14,306 nt of DNA, taken from Myxococcales bacterium (lineage in GTDB: Bacteria > Myxococcota_A > UBA9042 > JABWCM01 > BTVJ01). A model generated the notes under the pieces. The model did no database searches. It worked only from the letters and a program-made list of their open reading frames with translations, and had not been told where the DNA came from. Where the stretch lies: contig BTVJ01000134.1 in assembly GCA_045863395.1 (NCBI GenBank), forward strand, positions 1 to 14,306. Direction: 5' to 3'. Every line of letters begins with the position of its first letter. Positions within the stretch are counted from its first letter, which is position 1. The translations under genes were made by a program, and so were the position numbers. This document shows positions 3,354 through 14,306 of the stretch, piece by piece.

Positions 3354-4310
3354 TCACAGCCCGAGCCAGCCGACGACGGCGTCCCGGATGAAGGACTCGA
3401 AGTACATCCACTCCAGCGCCGCAAGTGCAAGGAACGGACCGAAGGGGATCTCCATGGTGCGGAAGCCCTCTGGGGCCGGGTCGCCCGCGGCGCCCTCCAC
3501 GTCCACGTCGCCCTCCCCGTCCACGTCGCCCTCCACGTCCACGTCGCCCTCCCCGGCCTGCCCGCCAGCCGCTCTCTCCGCCCCGCCGCGCCCCACACCC
3601 GCCACGTAGAGCACGATGGCCGCCACCGTCCCCTGCAGGGAGGACGCGAAGAGGACGAACACGACCGCCTCGTAGCCAAGCCAGGCCCCGAGCATCGCCA
3701 TCATCACGAAGTCGCCGCCCCCCATGCCCTCGCGGCGCCGGACCAGCCAGTAGACCTGGATGATGAGGAAGATGATGCCACCGCCGAGCGCCGCGCCCAG
3801 GGCGGACGTCGCCAGGTCCACGCCAGTGAAGCTCCCGATGAACGGCGAGACGCCGAGGCCGACGACGAGCCCGCCGACCGACAGCTCGTGGGGGATGATC
3901 CGCAGGTCCAGATCGATGAACGTGATCGCGACCAGCAGCGCAACGAAGGTGAAGCGGAGCACCCAGACGGCGAGCACGTCGCCGAGCGCGGCGTCGGGGA
4001 CCATGCGGACCGCCAGCATGAAGGTGGCCAACGACAGGACGGCGGTCAGCAGCTCCACCAGGGGATAGCGGGGCGAGATCGGCGCGCCGCAGAAGGCACA
4101 GCGCGCACGGAGGGCGACCCAGGACAGGATCGGGACGTTGTGCCACCAGCGGAGCGTCGCCGAGCAGCGCGGGCAGTGGGACGGGGGGCGCACCACCGAG
4201 TGGCCGTGGGGCAGCCGGTGGATGACCACATTGAGAAAGGAGCCCCAGATGGCGCCCCACACGAAGGAGAGCGCTAGCCAGAAGGAGTACAGCTCGCCGG
4301 TGAGATCCAC
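3354..4310 (-). CDS. pilD: type IV prepilin peptidase / N-methyltransferase (peptidase A24A), 318 aa
   Basis: GSFLNVVIHRLP, two CxxC motifs (CPRC, CAFC) followed by ISPRYPLVE, catalytic Asp motifs FIDLD and GMGGGD, C-terminal IPFGPFLALA. Confidence 0.96.
   Translation of the reverse strand: MDLTGELYSFWLALSFVWGAIWGSFLNVVIHRLPHGHSVVRPPSHCPRCSATLRWWHNVPILSWVALRARCAFCGAPISPRYPLVELLTAVLSLATFMLAVRMVPDAALGDVLAVWVLRFTFVALLVAITFIDLDLRIIPHELSVGGLVVGLGVSPFIGSFTGVDLATSALGAALGGGIIFLIIQVYWLVRRREGMGGGDFVMMAMLGAWLGYEAVVFVLFASSLQGTVAAIVLYVAGVGRGGAERAAGGQAGEGDVDVEGDVDGEGDVDVEGAAGDPAPEGFRTMEIPFGPFLALAALEWMYFESFIRDAVVGWLGL
3491..3554. repeat. in-frame 18-bp tandem repeat (~3.5 copies) inside pilD
   Basis: Units CGCCCTCCACGTCCACGT (3491), CGCCCTCCCCGTCCACGT (3509), CGCCCTCCACGTCCACGT (3527), partial CGCCCTCCCC (3545). 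Encodes GEGDVDVEGDVDGEGDVDVEG. Confidence 0.93.
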
Positions 4311-4319
4311 GGGCGCGGC

Positions 4320-7300
4320 TCAGCGCACGGAGAAGGTGCCGACGCGGACCCTGTTGCCGCCGTCGTGGAGCACGCGCCCCCGGTCGAACTCCGTCACCTT
4401 CATGCGCTTGTCGTTGGCGGTGTTGTAGAAGCCGATCCACACGTCCTGGGGCCCGCCCGGGGTACCGAGCGGCACCTCCTGGGCGTACTCGTCCACGACG
4501 ATGTCACCGGGCATCCAGTGCCGGGTCTGGAAGCAACCGACACACCCCTTCTCCTCCGGGTCGCTGGACATGTTGAGGACGTAGTGGTCGCCGCCGATGC
4601 GGTTCGAGCTGCCTGGCTTGTCCACGTGCATGAACAGCCGCCAGCTCGTCGAGGTCTCCTTCAGCACCTTGAAATAGAAGAAGATCTTGAACTCTTCGCG
4701 GCCGCGCACCGCGTCGCTCTCCATGCGCCAGGCGACGAGCTCCAGGGTGTCCTCCCAGTTGACCGAGGTCCGCTTGATACCGGGTACTTGTGCGAGCTGC
4801 TCCTGCGTGATCACGTGGTCGGCGATCCAGTTGCGGCTCCGCTCGCCATCTTTGAGGTGGCTGGTGGCGAGGACGATGCGCGAGGAGCGGTCATCGAGCA
4901 CCGGAATGTGGCGTCCACCCGAGAGCTTGCGGAACTGGTGGTTGAGCTCGCTGAACGACAGCTTCGGCAGGAGGAAGAAGGTGCGGCCGCGCTCGGCCGC
5001 CGTCGCCCCGTGGTCGCGCGCGTCCTTGTGGTCGATGGTGTACGCGCTGCGGAAGCTGTCGTCGCGGCCCGACGACGGGCGCCCCTGGACGTGCAAGGTG
5101 TCCGCCGTGTTGGAGGTGATCGGGAGCTGGCGGCCGGCGCTGTCGATGAGCAGGAACCCCGCCCACTGGTTGTCGGTCCACCGCTTGTCCTCATCGACGA
5201 GGAGGCCGTCCTCCACCCGCTCGGCGATCCCCGCGTCACCGGGCCAGTCGCGCCGCCCGTCGCCGTCCAGGTCGTTGGCCTCCGTGAAGCCCTGCACCAC
5301 GCGGACCTGGGAGCGCCCCCCTTCCGTGGAGAGCTTCACGGGCACGTCCGCCTCGTTGAGCAGGATCTGCATGACGCGGCTGCGGTCCGAGACCTCGGGG
5401 ATCCCGCGCGTATAGAAGTTGTACTCGTCGCTCGCCCCTCCGAAGGAGCCGTGCTTGAAGAGGTCATCCTCCGGGCCGCCGGCGTTGGCCTCGCGCCAGG
5501 TGTCGATGATGTGCTTCTGCGACACGTGGAAGGAGAGGTCAGGCACGAAGCGCTGGGCATAGAGCATGGTGCTCAGAAGCGCGCACACCACGAACAGGGG
5601 GACGGCGACGCGGCCGCGCTCCATGTGGAGGAGCAGCCGCTCCCCGAGGCGCGCGGAGAGCAGGCGCCGGACCAGCCCATCCGGGCTGCCCGGGAGCAGG
5701 CGCGCGCCGATCGCTTCTCGGCGCCCCCACAGGGCGCTGAGGCCCAGCAACGCCATGAGCCCGAGCAGGATCTTCACGTCGCGGGCACCCCAGAAGACGT
5801 AGCGGATCGTGTCCTCGGGCTCGCCGTCCGGGTAGAGCTGCGGCACCAGCTCTCTCCACTTCTGTACGTAGGGGATCAGGATGGAGCCCGCGATGGCCAG
5901 GCCGCCAAGGACGATGGCTGCGAGCAGCCACCCGGGGCGGCTCGCCAGAGCCCGTGCGATGAGTGGCACGGCGATGAGGGCGGCGAGGCCGAGCAGGGCC
6001 CAGAGCTCCGGCGGGGTCATCCACGCCTCCTTGCTGAGGCGCACCGCCATGTACAGAAGCAGGGCTGCCGCGGCGCCCATGGCCGGGAGCCAGCGGTCGG
6101 CTCCGTTGGGGAAGGCGCGGCGGAGGCGGCCTGCGTCTGCCGGCGGCGACTGGGCGGCACCCGCGCCGAGGATGGCGGAGCCCACGAGGGCGACGCAGAG
6201 GGCCCAGAAAGCGGGATCCAGGAGCGTGCTCCCGATGCCGTAGCCCTCCGGGAAGCGGACGCGGGCGATGGCGTCGATGAGGCTCACCGCGCCGACGACG
6301 AGCAGGGCGGACAGGGCGACGCGGGGCTTTTCGAGACCGATCAAGGCCCAGCCGCGCGCCACGAGCCGACCGACGGCGCGAACGGGACGCGACGCGAGCT
6401 CCCGCCGGCGCCGCCCCCAGGCCGTAGCGGTCAAGACGAGGGCAACGAGCAGCGCCGCGAGGGCGAGGGCGCCGATCACGTGCTCGGGGCGCCCCAGCAC
6501 CTGAGAGGGGAAGGCGTGCTGCTCGGCGCCGAGCCGAGCGGCCTCGGGGAGCTTGAAGGCCGCGGAGAACCGGCCTCGCATGGAGAGGACCAGGTCTGCC
6601 GCGAGGGCGGCAGCGAGCACCGAGACAGTGACCGCCAGGGGGCGAGGGCGCTGGAAGAAGCGCGCGACACGCAGCGCGACCGACCCGAGCTGGGAGAACG
6701 CATTGATCAGCACGACGGTGCTCAGCAGGAGGATCGCCATGAGCGACCCCGGCGCCTTCAGGTCCACGGGGAACAGGAGCCCGCTCTTCTCTTTGGTGAA
6801 GGGCGGATCGTAGGCCAGGAACGACACCAGGGGCTCGGGGGATGCCTTGATGTCATGGACGAGGATCAAGAGGATGCCGCCGACGATGACGGCGGCGAAG
6901 CGGTCCAGGGAGCCCTCCGACAACAGGCGATCCAGCAGCAGGCCGAGGGCCACGGCCAGGGCCGGGGCCACGGGCAGGACGACGTGGGTGAAGTCCTTGA
7001 ACATCACCATGTGGAGGACGAGCGGCACGCAGAACCACAGGAAGATCAGCACCTGGACGCGACCGACGGTGCGGCTCTCCGCGTCGGCCTCGCGGGCGTC
7101 GGTGCCCCAGAAGGTCCGCGCGCCGGCCATCAGGCGACCCAGCGCAAAGGGGACCAATGCGGCCCAGGGCAGCGTCCCGAAGCCGAGCTGTCGGATGAAG
7201 TAGTCGAAGTTGCGGTTGTCGGGAGACGGCCCCTTGCCGTGCAGGCGGTTCATGAAGCGGAAGTGATCGAAGAAGGTCCACTCGTCGGGCGAGAACACGA

Positions 7301-8573
7301 GGGCCAGCGCCACGGCGAAGGCGGCGAGCACCCCGAGGGTCGCGATGAGGGTGTCGCGCCGCAGGTCCAGGGTCGCTCCGACGTAGGCGACCAGGATGGC
7401 CGACAGGATCAGGAGGCCGAAGAGACCCTTCGCCAGGAAGACGAGCACCACACCCGCGGCGAGGGCGGCGAGCGTTCCCGTGAGGGACCCGCCCCGGACC
7501 ACCAGAAGAAACGAGCCGATGGCGAGCAGCAGCGACATGGCGAAGGGCGCGTCACCGCTCAGGTTGCGGGCGGCGGCAAAGGCGAGGGGCATGGTGACGA
7601 GGGCGAGGCTCGCCAGCAGCGCCACCCGCTCCCCGAGGACGGCGCGCGTCATCAGGTAGAGGGCCAGCACGCCGAAGAGCACGACCAGCGCGAGGGGGAA
7701 CCGCGACGACCACTCGCTGAAGCCGAAGAGCTTGTAGGAGCCTGCGACGAGCCAGGCGTCGAGCACGGGCACGGACCAGGTGACGCCGTCGCGCTTGTGC
7801 TGGACGCGCATCCACTGCACGCCCGGGACCGCGCCGAGGGCGTCTACCGCTGCCTCGATGCTCGTCACTACGGGGACCGGCACGCGGGTCATGGGTTCGC
7901 CCTGCAGGCGTGGGGCGAGCCGGGCCTCTGCCGCGTCACCGAGCCCTTCGTCCAGGCCAGCGGCACGCACGAGCGCGAGGCCCGCGCGGAGCGAGCCCAG
8001 GGCGTAGCGCTCCTCGACCTGCCCCTTGATGGCGTCCGTCGACGCGTAGAGCACGATGGTCGCGCCATCGTTGCCGGCAGCCAGCCCGTCGAGGAGGCCC
8101 GCCACCTGCTCGGGGGACTGCTCCTGGCCACCCGCCGTGAGGAGCAGCGTGGCGTCGATGACGATGGCGTGCCAGGCGGTGGCGTCCAGGGCGGCGCGCG
8201 CCCGGGTCCAGATGGCGCTGGGCGCCGGCCGCTCACGGGCGGCGCGATCCCCCGCCAGCTCCGCCGGGCCGTCGACCCCGAGGTCGGGGTAGCGGGAGCG
8301 GATCGCCTCGGTCAGCGGGTAGGCGGAGGCTTCGGGGCCCTCGACCGTCGCGGCCGGCTCGGCCACCAGCACGCGCGCCCCGCCGGCGATGGTGCGCGCG
8401 ACCGACGCCCGCTGCATCTCCCAGGGGTCCCAGAGACCGAAACGCCCCAACCCTGGGAACAGCACCGCCGCGGCCACCGCCAGGACCACCAGCGCCCAGA
8501 GTGGTCGATGGTGGTCGCGGGTGAAGCTGCGAATCTTGTGGAGGCCCGACGGGCCGTCCTTGGTGGGCACCAT
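4320..8573 (-). CDS. very large polytopic GT-C glycosyltransferase (ArnT/PMT-like, GT39/GT83 type) with soluble insertions and a C-terminal beta-sandwich-like domain, ~1417 aa
   Basis: TM1 followed by GLWDPWE acidic motif. WLVAGSYKLFGFSEWSSRFP, ARNLSGDAP, LAKGLFG, FDYFIRQLGFGTLPW and LPVAPALA match the ArnT/PMT motif order. Many further TM helices. C-terminal WRLFMHVD...GDH...WMPGDIVVD...VWIGFY domain. Start reassigned to ATG 8573 (GGAG 5 nt upstream); the extension to 9275 overlaps the opposite-strand gene. Confidence 0.85.
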   Translation of the reverse strand: MVPTKDGPSGLHKIRSFTRDHHRPLWALVVLAVAAAVLFPGLGRFGLWDPWEMQRASVARTIAGGARVLVAEPAATVEGPEASAYPLTEAIRSRYPDLGVDGPAELAGDRAARERPAPSAIWTRARAALDATAWHAIVIDATLLLTAGGQEQSPEQVAGLLDGLAAGNDGATIVLYASTDAIKGQVEERYALGSLRAGLALVRAAGLDEGLGDAAEARLAPRLQGEPMTRVPVPVVTSIEAAVDALGAVPGVQWMRVQHKRDGVTWSVPVLDAWLVAGSYKLFGFSEWSSRFPLALVVLFGVLALYLMTRAVLGERVALLASLALVTMPLAFAAARNLSGDAPFAMSLLLAIGSFLLVVRGGSLTGTLAALAAGVVLVFLAKGLFGLLILSAILVAYVGATLDLRRDTLIATLGVLAAFAVALALVFSPDEWTFFDHFRFMNRLHGKGPSPDNRNFDYFIRQLGFGTLPWAALVPFALGRLMAGARTFWGTDAREADAESRTVGRVQVLIFLWFCVPLVLHMVMFKDFTHVVLPVAPALAVALGLLLDRLLSEGSLDRFAAVIVGGILLILVHDIKASPEPLVSFLAYDPPFTKEKSGLLFPVDLKAPGSLMAILLLSTVVLINAFSQLGSVALRVARFFQRPRPLAVTVSVLAAALAADLVLSMRGRFSAAFKLPEAARLGAEQHAFPSQVLGRPEHVIGALALAALLVALVLTATAWGRRRRELASRPVRAVGRLVARGWALIGLEKPRVALSALLVVGAVSLIDAIARVRFPEGYGIGSTLLDPAFWALCVALVGSAILGAGAAQSPPADAGRLRRAFPNGADRWLPAMGAAAALLLYMAVRLSKEAWMTPPELWALLGLAALIAVPLIARALASRPGWLLAAIVLGGLAIAGSILIPYVQKWRELVPQLYPDGEPEDTIRYVFWGARDVKILLGLMALLGLSALWGRREAIGARLLPGSPDGLVRRLLSARLGERLLLHMERGRVAVPLFVVCALLSTMLYAQRFVPDLSFHVSQKHIIDTWREANAGGPEDDLFKHGSFGGASDEYNFYTRGIPEVSDRSRVMQILLNEADVPVKLSTEGGRSQVRVVQGFTEANDLDGDGRRDWPGDAGIAERVEDGLLVDEDKRWTDNQWAGFLLIDSAGRQLPITSNTADTLHVQGRPSSGRDDSFRSAYTIDHKDARDHGATAAERGRTFFLLPKLSFSELNHQFRKLSGGRHIPVLDDRSSRIVLATSHLKDGERSRNWIADHVITQEQLAQVPGIKRTSVNWEDTLELVAWRMESDAVRGREEFKIFFYFKVLKETSTSWRLFMHVDKPGSSNRIGGDHYVLNMSSDPEEKGCVGCFQTRHWMPGDIVVDEYAQEVPLGTPGGPQDVWIGFYNTANDKRMKVTEFDRGRVLHDGGNRVRVGTFSVR

Positions 8574-8594
8574 GAATGCTCCGACCGGCTGCGC

Positions 8595-8610
8595 CGGCAC
8601 GACAATTGCT
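8595..8610 (+). promoter_or_regulatory. near-consensus sigma54 -24/-12 promoter facing the DUF6178-like gene
   Basis: CGGCACGACAATTGCT vs consensus TGGCACG-N4-TTGCW (single mismatch), followed by an AT-rich melt region (AAATAAATAC). Confidence 0.7.
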
Positions 8611-10570: not shown

Positions 10571-10915
10571 TCAGCCGGGGATCTTGCCCACGAGCGTGAA
10601 GCTGATCACGAGGGAGTAGATGACCAGCGACTCGATGAGGGCGAGGCCGAGGATCATCGGGGTGAACAGCTTGTCCGAGGCGCCGGGGTTGCGGGCGATG
10701 CCCTCGAGGGCCGCGGCCGCCGCGCGGCCCTGGCCGAGCGCGCCGCCGAACGCCGCGATGGCGATGCCGAAGCCCGTCGCGAGCGCGACGTACTTTCCGA
10801 CGGTGAAGTTGTTGTCGGCGACGTCGCCGTCGGCGGCGAGCGCGATGCCCGCGAACAGCAACACGTTGAACAGGGCAAGGGCCAGGGTGAGCAGGGTCTT
10901 CTTGGCGGTGGACAT
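10571..10915 (-). CDS. atpE: F0F1 ATP synthase subunit c with N-terminal signal-peptide-like extension, 114 aa
   Basis: GIAIAAFGGALGQG glycine motif, loop ARNP, ion-binding LALIESLVIY. RBS AAGGAGG upstream. Confidence 0.97.
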   Translation of the reverse strand: MSTAKKTLLTLALALFNVLLFAGIALAADGDVADNNFTVGKYVALATGFGIAIAAFGGALGQGRAAAAALEGIARNPGASDKLFTPMILGLALIESLVIYSLVISFTLVGKIPG

Positions 10916-10977
10916 GGTCGGGTTCCTCCTTGGTGGATGTCGAAAAGGGTCTACCGTTCGAGTCGTCGAAGGTTCGG

Positions 10978-11895
10978 CTAATGGTGCGCGGCATCCTCCA
11001 AGGCGATGGAGAAGTACACCATCGTCAGGAGGCAGAACACCAGGGTCTGGACAACGGCCACGAGCAGGCCGAGGAGCATGATCGGCAGGGGGACCAGCAC
11101 GAAGCCGAAGCCCAGGAAGATCCCCATCACCTTATGGTCCCCGAACATATTGCCCATCAACCGGAGGGCGAGAGAGATCGGGCGAGCCACGTGGCTGATC
11201 ATCTCGATCAGGAACATCAGGATCATGAGCGGGAGCGCGTACCACGCGATGATCGGGCCAAAGAAGTGCTTGAAGTAGGCGAGGCCGCTGTTCCGGACGC
11301 CATACCAGTGGGTCGCGAGGAACACGGTGAGCCCGAGCGCCAGGGTGGTGTTCAGGTTGTCCGTCGGCGGCAGGAAGCCGGGGATCATGCCGAGGACGTT
11401 GCTGAAGAGGATGAACGCCGCCAGGGAGGCGACCAGCGGCAGGACCTTGCGCGCCTTCTCGGCGGACATGCCCATGCTCGTCTGGAGCATGGTGAGGATG
11501 CCGCCGACGATCACCTCGAAGAACACGGTGGCGGAGAGCTTCGTCTCGGGCACCACCGCCTTCTCTGGATCGGACAGGCGCTTGCTCACCCCGACCGCGA
11601 GGAGCGCCAGGAGCACGAACACGACGCCCGCCATGACCACGTGAGCGACGCGCCCGACGGGGGACTTCTCGATCCAGGTGTTGCCGAGCATGCCCTGCAG
11701 GTTGTGGAACAGCCCGGGCATGAGCTGCTGCGGCAGCGACCAGTGGTCGCCCTCCGCGGCGTGGGCCCCCTCGGCGGCCTCGGGAGCGGCGTGGCCCCCC
11801 TCCGCGAGCGCAGGGCCGGCCAGCAGCAGCAGCGACGTCACCGCGAGCAGCCAGGCTGCGCGGAGCATGAGGGGCCTCTTCACCAGAAACGACAT
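10978..11895 (-). CDS. atpB: F0F1 ATP synthase subunit a, ~305 aa
   Basis: FILFSNVLGMIPG..PPTDNLN, EMISHVARPISLALRLMGNM (essential Arg), QTLVFCLLTMVY. Start reassigned to ATG 11895 (GGAG 8 nt upstream, just after the atpI stop). Confidence 0.96.
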   Translation of the reverse strand: MSFLVKRPLMLRAAWLLAVTSLLLLAGPALAEGGHAAPEAAEGAHAAEGDHWSLPQQLMPGLFHNLQGMLGNTWIEKSPVGRVAHVVMAGVVFVLLALLAVGVSKRLSDPEKAVVPETKLSATVFFEVIVGGILTMLQTSMGMSAEKARKVLPLVASLAAFILFSNVLGMIPGFLPPTDNLNTTLALGLTVFLATHWYGVRNSGLAYFKHFFGPIIAWYALPLMILMFLIEMISHVARPISLALRLMGNMFGDHKVMGIFLGFGFVLVPLPIMLLGLLVAVVQTLVFCLLTMVYFSIALEDAAHH

Positions 11896-11900
11896 CCGAC

Positions 11901-12317
11901 TCACTCCCGATGCATCGGAGCGCTCTCCGGGCGAGCGCCGGAGCGCGCCTGGTCGAGCATCGTGCGATACGACTCCACGAAGAGGACCACGAAGAGCGTG
12001 GAGATCCCGACCACGAACGGGATCACGTCCACCCTGACACGGACGACCAGGGCGTAGGTGACCGCGATGAGCACGCCGAACTTGGCGAGGAACAGGAGGA
12101 TGAAGAGCGAGCGGCTGCGTGGCGTCGAGGCCGCGATGCGCCGGCCGATCCACGCGATGACGCGGAAGTTGATCACGGAGAGCAGGACGCCCATGGCCAT
12201 GCTCCACAGCGCGTGGCCGAACCCGAGCACCAGGCCCGACCCGAGCAGCAGGAGCGCCCCGACGAGCAGGTTCGTCCGCTCGACCGTCCTCAGGAACCGT
12301 GTGATCTGCGCACTCAC
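11901..12317 (-). CDS. atpI: ATP synthase protein I (4-TM AtpI/UncI), ~138 aa
   Basis: Four hydrophobic helices with GVLLSVINF and FLAKFGVL patterns, directly upstream of atpB. GTG 12317 chosen (GAGG 8 nt upstream); ATG 12353 is an alternative start. Confidence 0.8.
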   Translation of the reverse strand: MSAQITRFLRTVERTNLLVGALLLLGSGLVLGFGHALWSMAMGVLLSVINFRVIAWIGRRIAASTPRSRSLFILLFLAKFGVLIAVTYALVVRVRVDVIPFVVGISTLFVVLFVESYRTMLDQARSGARPESAPMHRE

Positions 12318-12339
12318 TCCATGATCCTCGTCGCCGACA

Positions 12340-12714
12340 TCACCGGCCGTCATCGGCGTCGCCGGAGGGCTGCTCCGGCCCATCTTGCCCGCCATCTCGG
12401 CGCATCTCGTACAGCGCCTGCCTGCCCACGCGGAACACCGCGCGGAAGGCAGCGCCGATCCCGCTCAGGAGGAACAGGATCGTCATCCACGGGGCCGACC
12501 CGAGCTTGCCGTCGAGCCAGGAGCCCACCAGCCAGCCCACGAACACCGAGATGCCCATCTCGAGCCCGAGCGACCCGTAGGACGCCGCCGTCATCCAGCT
12601 CGAGCGACGCCCCGGCTGCTTGGCCGGGTCGTCGGGGTCACCTGCCGGCTGCGGCCCGCCCGGCATCCTGTGCGCGTCGCCCAGCGTAGCTCCCCGGAGG
12701 CCCAGCGGCCCCAT
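12340..12714 (-). CDS. atpZ: AtpZ/AtpI-family (ATPase gene 1) two-TM protein
   Basis: SLGLEMGISVFVGWLVGSWLDGKLGSAPWMTILFLLSGIGAAF is the typical G..G.WLD..L.T.PW signature. Start uncertain (TTG 12741, ATG 12714 or ATG 12666). Confidence 0.88.
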   Translation of the reverse strand: MGPLGLRGATLGDAHRMPGGPQPAGDPDDPAKQPGRRSSWMTAASYGSLGLEMGISVFVGWLVGSWLDGKLGSAPWMTILFLLSGIGAAFRAVFRVGRQALYEMRRDGGQDGPEQPSGDADDGR

Positions 12715-12786
12715 CGGGCGCCGCCTGACCCCATTCTTCAATGATTCTCAAACGTTCGGCAAAGAGCCCCCGAACAACCGGGCGTT

Positions 12787-12815
12787 TGTCTAGCACAGCC
12801 GCCCCCGTGCGTCAA
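12787..12815 (-). promoter_or_regulatory. sigma70 promoter of the atpZIBE operon
   Basis: Minus strand TTGACG(12815-12810)-N17-TAGACA(12792-12787) with an extended -10 TG (TGC TAGACA). Confidence 0.6.
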
Positions 12816-13088
12816 TGCCCTTCGGCCACAAGGGGACGGCACGCGGCACGCCCGCATGACGCGCTACGTCAAGAGGAGGCGGAGGGCCGAGCGCGCCGCC
12901 CCCAACCGTGCGGTCGACGACGGTTGCCGCGACCCACCGGAGACGCGGGCCCTCCGTTGGCGGCCACGACGTCACGCGCCGGGCCGAAGGAGCGGCCTCG
13001 ATGGTCCCCGCAGGCCTGCGCTCCCCCCGCCCGTCCCCGCGCAAACACTTGCTCGAACTGGTGTCACCCATCCCCACTTTGTAACCAA

Positions 13089-13123
13089 TGTCCTGGCCAG
13101 GACAGATAAGTTGCTTGATCAAG
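13089..13123. promoter_or_regulatory. two adjacent perfect palindromes, candidate transcription-factor operators
   Basis: TGTCCTGGCCAGGACA (13089-13104, 16 bp) and CTTGATCAAG (13114-13123, 10 bp) in the most AT-rich part of the intergenic region. Confidence 0.45.
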
Positions 13124-13144
13124 GTTCGTGGGGGGAACACAGTA

Positions 13145-13234
13145 GGCCCTGTGCCCACGTGCTGGCAGTCTCCTCTTGCGAGACGCACGATGTGCTTGCC
13201 AGCACCTTCGGGGCTGGACTTCGGGCGCAGGGCC
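13145..13234 (+). ncRNA. candidate structured RNA (multi-stem cis-leader or small RNA), family not recognised
   Basis: Nested stems read directly from the sequence: 13145-13156/13223-13234 (12 bp, one U-G), 13159-13167/13197-13205 (9 bp), 13168-13172/13180-13184, 13185-13188/13192-13195. Confidence 0.45.
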
Positions 13235-13424
13235 GTGCACCGACGACAGGCGCCCAACCGAGCACGGTGACGAGCTTCCGCTGCTCAGTGGCCTCCCGCA
13301 CTTCGGGAGGAAGAGGGCGGCGTCGCGAGTGGCAGGAGAAGGTGCCTCGGCCGGCCGAGTGGGGGCCCACTCGGCACGACCGGGGCCAGACGGTGCGCCG
13401 GGCCGCACCATCGAGGAGGACACC

Positions 13425-14258
13425 ATGCTCGTGCGTGCTCTGGCAGCGCTGACAGTCAGCGCGACGGCCGCGATCCTCGGAACGACAGCTCTGGCCGCCC
13501 CCCCCGAAGGTAGAATTTACGGTTTCCCCGCACCTTGCTTCGAGCTGGCGGGAGCCTGACTCCGCCGTGCTCCGCTTCGAGCTGCCGCCCGTCACGTCCA
13601 TCCAGATCGCCCGCCTGAGGTGTCCGACGCCGGCTCCGTTTACATCAGGAACCAGGCAGTCCATGCGGGTCACACCTACCAGTTCGCAACGACGGGATTG
13701 ACGCGGAGCGAGGACACGGTGATGCACCTCCGAGGAAACACGGGCGGAGGAGGGGGCTGGCAGTGGCTCGCCTCGAACGACGACATCTTTCACTCCGGCT
13801 GCAACCCGCTCCCGCCCGGTGTCACTACCTACTCCTCGTGCATCCAATACACGCCCTCGACGAGCCACCAGGTGAGCATCACTGTCCACGCCTACAGCGA
13901 CGCAGCGCGGGGGCGGATGGACTTCTGGGTCTACGATCTGGACGCCGCCAACCCTGTCATCTTCCGCGGCTCCAACGTGGCGTTCGCGGGGCGGGTCATC
14001 AGGACGTATGCGTGGAACGGGAGCAATCACCTGATCGATTGGGTCGCACAGGAGCGCCTCAACACGGCCTACGTCAACGGCGGAATGCAGCTTCTGAACC
14101 TTCTCGTGCTTCTTGGCTCGGAGCACCTGTACGCCTCCGAGAGCGGCATGGTCGGCGGCGTGTACCAGGGCATCTGGGGGCAACCGGAAGCCGTCCTCTA
14201 CGAGTCTCGCGCATCGCTAGAGGCCCAGTTTCAAGGCGCGGGGGGCGCCGCATGTTGA
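13425..14258 (+). pseudogene. interrupted gene for a secreted protein with a PPC-like (pre-peptidase C-terminal) beta-sandwich domain
   Basis: RBS GAGGAGG (13413-13419), ATG 13425 and signal peptide MLVRALAALTVSATAAILGTTALA|A. In-frame TGA at 13557-13559; the same frame then stays open to 14258 with AGHTYQFATTG...DTVMHL...LASNDD...SCIQY...ITVHAY...G, a PPC-type pattern. Could be a true pseudogene, sequencing indels or a phase-off allele. Confidence 0.6.
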
Positions 14259-14306
14259 CGCGCATCGGAAACCGCGCAAATCACAGCACGCCGGAGGGGG
14301 ACTGGC

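Follow-up and report, generated by a model that had tools for sequence, protein, structure and literature searches.

The purine, c-di-GMP-I, and glutamine riboswitch classes are three-way-junction aptamers. Translational riboswitches of this architecture resemble the element studied here in combining a junction in the 5′ leader with a predicted alternative fold; our element, however, has no Rfam match (E values up to 10), no conserved homologues among the genomes compared, and no robust link to the ribosome site, and its junction is nearly devoid of unpaired bases. The leader can also be likened to the stabilizing stem-loop type, to which ompA belongs. In E. coli, 5′ secondary structure stabilizes mRNA, since RppH and RNase E require single-stranded 5′ ends (PMC3997798). 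The 5′-terminal stem-loops of the papA type, as described in PMC3997798, are ligand-free, as is proposed for our locus, and they have in common with it a long leader and a stable hairpin, here predicted to lie at the 5′ end or close to it; instead of one 5′ fold, two nested and mutually exclusive ones would form at our candidate starts. The RNase III-processed 5′-UTR hairpin of Haemophilus influenzae hmw (PMC12721329) offers a parallel in its structured leader, its exported-protein gene, and a variable repeat nearby; there, the repeat builds the hairpin inside the leader, whereas here the variable C-run is part of the coding sequence. REP/MITE repeats, like our element, are intergenic and made of nested inverted repeats with nearly exclusively Watson-Crick pairs; the element differs from them in being single-copy and in showing no significant similarity to a ~160-bp family of the same genome.

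The element lies in the window (the whole stretch of 14,306 nt that was analyzed, identical to source contig C134 of an 8.8-Mb Myxococcales genome) within a 683-nt intergenic gap flanked on one side by minus-strand ATP synthase F0 genes and on the other by a plus-strand open reading frame (ORF) that starts at 13425. The leader DNA has a GC content of 69%. We consider it most likely that the element is not a stand-alone RNA but makes up the initial ~85 nt of a structured 5′ untranslated leader of ~275 nt. It is a modest but real predicted fold that opens a 5′ leader; high-GC bacteria commonly have structured leaders, so that a single-copy example without known relatives, as read, has limited significance. 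Elsewhere in the window, the ATP synthase genes at 10571 to 12815 of the minus strand are confined to the F0 part (gene 1, subunit I, a-like, and c-like). A prepilin-peptidase-like gene (3354 to 4310, named by eye), in which an 18-bp tandem repeat at 3471 to 3561 encodes an acidic insert, adjoins a PilS/PilR-like pair (names also given by eye), and a very large membrane glycosyltransferase-like gene with a PMT_2 domain (4320 to 8600, minus strand) is divergent from a DUF6178 gene. The features of the leader and its surroundings are as follows.

13089 to 13104, no strand assigned: perfect 16-bp palindrome, ~10 bp upstream of the −35 box of P1
13115 to 13143, plus strand: candidate sigma70 promoter P1 (−35 TTGATC at 13115 to 13120, 17-bp spacer, −10 CACAGT at 13138 to 13143, start ~13150)
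13145 to 13234, plus strand: whole fold, predicted minimum-energy structure; the first 4 to 5 pairs of its outer stem probably lie upstream of the start site
13145 to 13156 with 13223 to 13234, plus strand: outer 12-bp stem, with one U-G pair (13152/13227)
13159 to 13205, plus strand: robust core, a 9-bp perfect stem and a three-way junction with two small hairpins (−24.8 kcal/mol, z −3.65)
13163 to 13191, plus strand: weak candidate promoter P2 (poor −35, −10 CACGAT at 13186 to 13191, start 13198)
13199 to 13217, plus strand: C(UUCG)G hairpin, which excludes the inner stem and would cap an RNA starting at 13198
13238 to 13329, plus strand: second, weaker multi-stem leader domain (z −2.19), with six strain differences at 13240 to 13328
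13343 to 13387, plus strand: strong hairpin in the 3′ part of the leader (−35.3 kcal/mol, z −4.63, reached by 0 of 200 shuffles)
13412 to 13427, plus strand: Shine-Dalgarno-like GAGGAGG and ATG, read from the sequence
13425 to 14255, plus strand: 5′ part of a secreted HExxH metalloprotease-like gene, assigned from homologues and paralogues
14253 to 14306, no strand assigned: end of a multicopy insertion sequence (the same 52 to 58 nt end six other contigs)

The sequence anatomy of the element is plain. The 12-bp closing stem, the 9-bp inner stem, and the three-way junction with two hairpins that the initial annotation had recognized were all recovered in the predicted minimum-energy structure. 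The arms of the 9-bp stem are located at 13159 to 13167 and 13197 to 13205, the junction hairpins at 13168 to 13184 and 13185 to 13195, and 17 nt (13206 to 13222), previously unmentioned, separate the inner from the outer stem on the 3′ side; the junction itself is nearly without unpaired bases. The 90-mer has a minimum free energy of −53.2 kcal/mol (z −4.06), equaled by 1 of 200 shuffles. The mutually exclusive UUCG hairpin that had been proposed likewise exists in silico and is incompatible with the inner stem: it is worth −10.0 kcal/mol alone, and forcing it in the 90-mer yields −49.9 instead of −53.2 kcal/mol, a cost of 3.3. The suggestion that a U-G pair favors the plus strand did not hold, since the z value of the minus strand (−4.09) is on par with that of the plus strand (−4.06) and a single such pair therefore does not orient the fold; 30 of the 31 modeled pairs are Watson-Crick. 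The leader as a whole is long and structured (z −2.53). Three CUUCGG hexamers (13206, 13219, and 13301) fall within 110 nt, an arrangement found on only three intergenic strands genome-wide, the other two of which look unrelated.

Four of the 24 listed sequencing runs were compared, including three RNA runs (X10, X17, and X18), and RNA contigs extend across the region, although assembled contigs show neither start, strand, nor level. An X18 contig spans 13149 to 13803 and an X10 contig 13197 to 13495, both entering the ORF; the X10 end at 13197/13198 abuts 21 loose letters, which we take to be library adapter. A low-depth X17 contig (12804 to 13325) crosses the P1 promoter. Neither X10 nor X18 has an RNA contig over 12792 to 13148, which was not counted as evidence. 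As a control, contigs of the atp genes end at 12760 and 12791, 20 and 11 nt off the start predicted at 12780 for the atp promoter, a clear sigma70 site on the minus strand (12815 to 12787).

Promoter scores were computed with a model trained on 700 of the 2,281 upstream regions of the genome and seeded with the E. coli consensus. P1 was the top plus-strand site (12.3 bits, compared to 15.1 bits for the atp promoter control), and P2 reached only 2.1 bits (rank 8). A consensus scan requiring at least 7 of 12 matches, a threshold chosen after the contig ends had been seen, returned predictions at 13150 and 13198 only for the plus strand in 689 nt, with a background of 2.3 per kb. A stricter built-in promoter scan found no promoter, no good sigma54-type site was present, and the number of terminator-like sites in 12600 to 13700 was zero. 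In a 127-codon open frame from 13176, 3 of 8 differences fell on third positions by manual count, which amounts to no bias. The predicted P1 start at 13150 is matched by the X18 contig start at 13149, and the predicted P2 start at 13198 is matched by the X10 contig end at 13197/13198; against the leader reading stand the X17 contig across the promoter, the low score of P2, and the interruption of the gene in the window strain. The start sites are inferred, and so is the strand, from promoter and gene. The contigs entering the ORF and the upstream position of P1 support the assignment of the element to the leader of the 13425 gene, the placement envisaged in the initial annotation, whereas its riboswitch-like switching is not supported.

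The reading that we prefer, with a probability of roughly 0.5, is that the element opens a structured leader of ~275 nt in which RNA length determines which of two folds is adopted, and that it acts at most as a passive protector of the 5′ end. Sigma70 RNA polymerase would initiate near 13150, as suggested by the sequence model and, weakly, by the RNA contigs. With such a start, the first 4 to 5 pairs of the outer stem would be missing, and the 12-bp stem is therefore probably not transcribed in full. In the computed folds, a start at 13149/13150 loses 4 to 5 of the 12 closing pairs (z of the remainder, −2.09), and the pair probability of the outer stem in the full leader is 0.01 to 0.28, compared to 1.00 from 13145. 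What would be left is an unstable outer stem and a 47-nt Y-shaped hairpin near the 5′ end, whose pair probability is 0.90 to 0.99 for every start at or before 13150 and 0.90 to 0.96 in the full leader from 13149/13150. A shorter RNA from 13198, generated by the weak P2 or by processing, would lack the left arm and carry the UUCG hairpin 1 nt from its end; the fold of this RNA is computed, and its existence is only hinted at. The probability of the UUCG hairpin is 0.01 to 0.10 in the long RNAs and 0.98 to 0.99 from 13198, and the predicted number of unpaired 5′ nucleotides is 1 for a start at 13198 and 0 to 4 for one at 13149/13150, all of these being candidate starts. Because the folds flip with the 5′ end, the two folds would thus represent mainly two RNA lengths, not ligand-bound and ligand-free states. 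RNase III is encoded in the genome; therefore, cleavage could account for the 13198 end, although position 13198, at the junction edge beside the 9-bp stem rather than inside a long duplex, is a poor geometric fit to the hmw precedent (PMC12721329). As for function, known mRNA decay suggests that the 5′-proximal hairpins may passively slow 5′-end-dependent decay of the metalloprotease-like message.

Searches for relatives of the element returned none. The initial annotation had seen no resemblance to known riboswitch classes, in agreement with Rfam 15, which gave no match at gathering score across the window and none over 13100 to 13430 even at E values up to 10; three weak matches over 12700 to 13600 all lie outside the element. 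ARAGORN found no tRNA or tmRNA genes. Self-cleaving ribozymes (hammerhead and hepatitis delta virus [HDV]-like) were dismissed, given the negative Rfam result and catalytic cores that were absent by eye in comparison with consensus features. The element is present once: BLAST, nhmmer, and covariance model searches revealed no further copies in the genome beyond short chance matches (next-best covariance model match, E = 0.74). BLAST against 400 genomes of the phylum at an E value of 1e−4 detected no homologues, and in a BLAST search of 60 genomes, seven gave only 24- to 32-nt matches (E, 0.0009 to 0.009). A one-sequence covariance model, run with stricter filters and of low sensitivity, matched none of 106 other genomes of the class and none of 150 genomes of the phylum (overlapping sets), nor any of 90 loci, of which 80 were viral loci retrieved by pattern and 10 were loci of homologues. 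Exact patterns were found neither in a collection of genome contigs nor in one of viral contigs, and a 14-mer matched by chance only; the plasmid search gave one 24-nt chance match and the phage search none. A metagenome scan with the closest protein homologue (P0001, 74% identity) pointed to one weak locus unrelated to the leader. The closest genomes compared are relatives at order level and none is of the same family, which makes these homologue searches insensitive. No description of the element appeared among the literature records searched.

No homologue was found that would indicate selection on the fold, and a functionless structure, i.e., a chance nest of inverted repeats in leader DNA of 69% GC, has to be weighed; we regard it as rather unlikely, though by no means far-fetched. 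The z value of a hand-picked window overstates significance; a local scan and shuffling of the region were applied instead. In the local scan, the element has a z of −4.77, which was attained by 8 of 148 block shuffles of its own intergenic region (683 nt, both strands); a z of −4 was attained by 48 of the 148. Among real intergenic regions (the scan covered 1,085 of 1,743), 97 attained −4.77, compared to 18 of 811 shuffled regions (8.9% versus 2.2%), and folds of at least 70 nt with at least two hairpins at the same z occurred in 37 of 1,085 real and 6 of 811 shuffled regions. Real regions are thus about fourfold enriched over shuffles, which argues against chance, yet about a quarter of real regions at such a z would be expected by chance. 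Corrected for the search, the excess of the fold over chance is borderline: the nesting that had been called notable does beat shuffles when the 90-mer is taken by itself, and the region-wide correction weakens this result. The transcribed part lies within chance expectation (z −2.09 from 13149/13150; core, −3.65), both strands have the same z, the genome is rich in intergenic palindromes, and stable cUUCGg hairpins are present in 33 of 1,743 intergenic regions. Two coincidences are not easily accommodated by chance, namely, the exact match between the UUCG hairpin and the end of an RNA contig and the rarity of the CUUCGG triplet.

A bistable switch, in which a metabolite, a protein, or temperature toggles between the Y-fold and the UUCG fold and thereby alters access to the ribosome-binding site, is doubtful. 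From 13149/13150, the two states differ by only 0.7 to 2.0 kcal/mol, so that a switch is conceivable, and the leader is long and structured. When the RNA was cut off at 13440, opening of the Shine-Dalgarno sequence was 2.2 to 3.2 kcal/mol harder in the UUCG state (two of nine settings). This difference shrank to at most 1.0 kcal/mol in the remaining seven settings, including cutoffs 13450 and 13460, and for the opening of the Shine-Dalgarno sequence together with the AUG it was at most 0.4 kcal/mol in nine of nine settings. The modeled coupling of the fold swap to ribosome site access is therefore not consistent. The junction offers almost no unpaired bases for a pocket; neither a terminator nor an Rfam family nor a conserved homologue was found, and the downstream gene, being nonmetabolic, gives no pointer to a ligand. 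The riboswitch-like reading was thus not borne out. A lineage-specific form of bistability, in which a ligand, an RNA-binding protein recognizing the three CUUCGG motifs, or the choice of start site sets the fold and through it the translation or lifetime of a phase-variable secreted-protease message, is a long shot as well. If a switch were true, an uncultured myxobacterial group would have a rare, lineage-restricted RNA regulating a secreted enzyme, and the locus would cleanly illustrate how the choice of start site picks between two 5′ folds.

Somewhat less probable still is that the inverted repeats serve as double-stranded DNA operators around the second promoter, the RNA fold being a by-product. 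The nearly pure Watson-Crick pairing would fit such a role, small palindromes overlap the −35 and −10 regions of P2, and the perfect palindrome upstream of P1 is a candidate regulator-binding site (31 perfect 16-bp palindromes occur in 621 kb of intergenic DNA). Set against this, no related intergenic sites were found at up to two mismatches (the probe being shifted by one base), 183 of 1,743 intergenic regions contain perfect 9-bp repeats spaced 20 to 40 nt apart, and P2 is weak.

A REP/MITE-like element had also been considered. The genome does harbor a ~160-bp palindromic repeat family (on contigs C9, C11, C19, C30, C32, C38, C59, C96, and others; 38 matches at E < 0.01, 23 long copies of which were used for a profile), whose members end in short, GC-rich repeats and apparently duplicate 3 bp of the target, and other palindromic families coexist with it. 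That our element is a decayed copy of this miniature transposon family is very unlikely: they have an 11-nt word and scattered short matches in common, yet the profile scores the element at −2.5 bits, the terminal repeats of the family are missing, and 463 of 2,551 unrelated intergenic control windows align equally well or better. The BLASTn check, in returning one copy only, also disposes of a high-copy DNA repeat. An independent small RNA on either strand is the least probable reading, because, for all the closed fold that is equally stable on both strands and an X10 depth of 53.7 over 13197 to 13495 compared to 13.7 deeper into the gene (contig depth cannot rank parts, and the drop falls at the variable C-run, where the assembly probably breaks), there is no family match, the RNA contigs pass from the element into the ORF, and the terminator search was negative, a test that leaves room for Rho-dependent or processed ends.

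The gene downstream of the leader belongs to a family of secreted proteins of ~800 to 1,100 residues with an HExxHxxGxxH motif and has three paralogues in the genome; its full-length product would comprise roughly 900 residues. A Pfam match to Reprolysin_5 is weak (E = 0.009) and below the cutoff, and the signal peptide was judged by eye. In the window strain, the gene is broken by an in-frame 96-nt insert with a TGA (13521 to 13616) and by an insertion sequence at 14253, which we take to be IS481-like; it has TGT...ACA ends and a 6-bp duplication common to the side on contig C40, where the remainder of the gene resides. The insertion sequence is absent from run X2, in which the gene continues, and this split is specific to the window strain. 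The 96-nt insert splits a conserved N-terminal motif and is also present in X2, X10, and X18; it folds no better than its shuffles (z +0.88), and no contig skips it. Despite the insert, most strain differences downstream leave the protein sequence unchanged, and X2 retains an intact remainder of the gene.

Strain differences were also considered as evidence for structure. One change inside the element keeps its pair as G-U; since C>T and A>G changes dominate the coding part too, it was given no weight. The strong hairpin at 13343 to 13387 has no listed differences in X10, X18, or X2. A patch of divergence between X18/X2 and the window extends from 13226 to 13590 (15 substitutions in 365 nt versus 2 in the preceding 926 nt), within which 13337 to 13463, a segment comprising the strong hairpin and the ribosome site, has none. 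A 205-nt RNA contig of X10 aligns to 13378 to 13471 with 11 differences and one gap over 94 nt and has different flanks. Its origin may be another locus, or a sister species, with a related leader end; no such locus was found in the source genome.

Relative to the window, X10 has 4 and X18 has 7 additional nucleotides in the C-run at 13498 to 13505, which follows the signal peptide and at which the assembly of X2 is interrupted. Family-wide phase variation through simple repeats is possible, and the start-proximal repeats of this protein family may be a more rewarding lead than the fold. Simple repeats were observed near the gene start in three of six homologue loci viewed (L026, L027, and L037), with, as counted by eye, ~10 copies of an 8-mer, ~7 copies of a 7-mer, and a C12 run, and also occur in a small upstream gene of two paralogue loci (C67 and C4).
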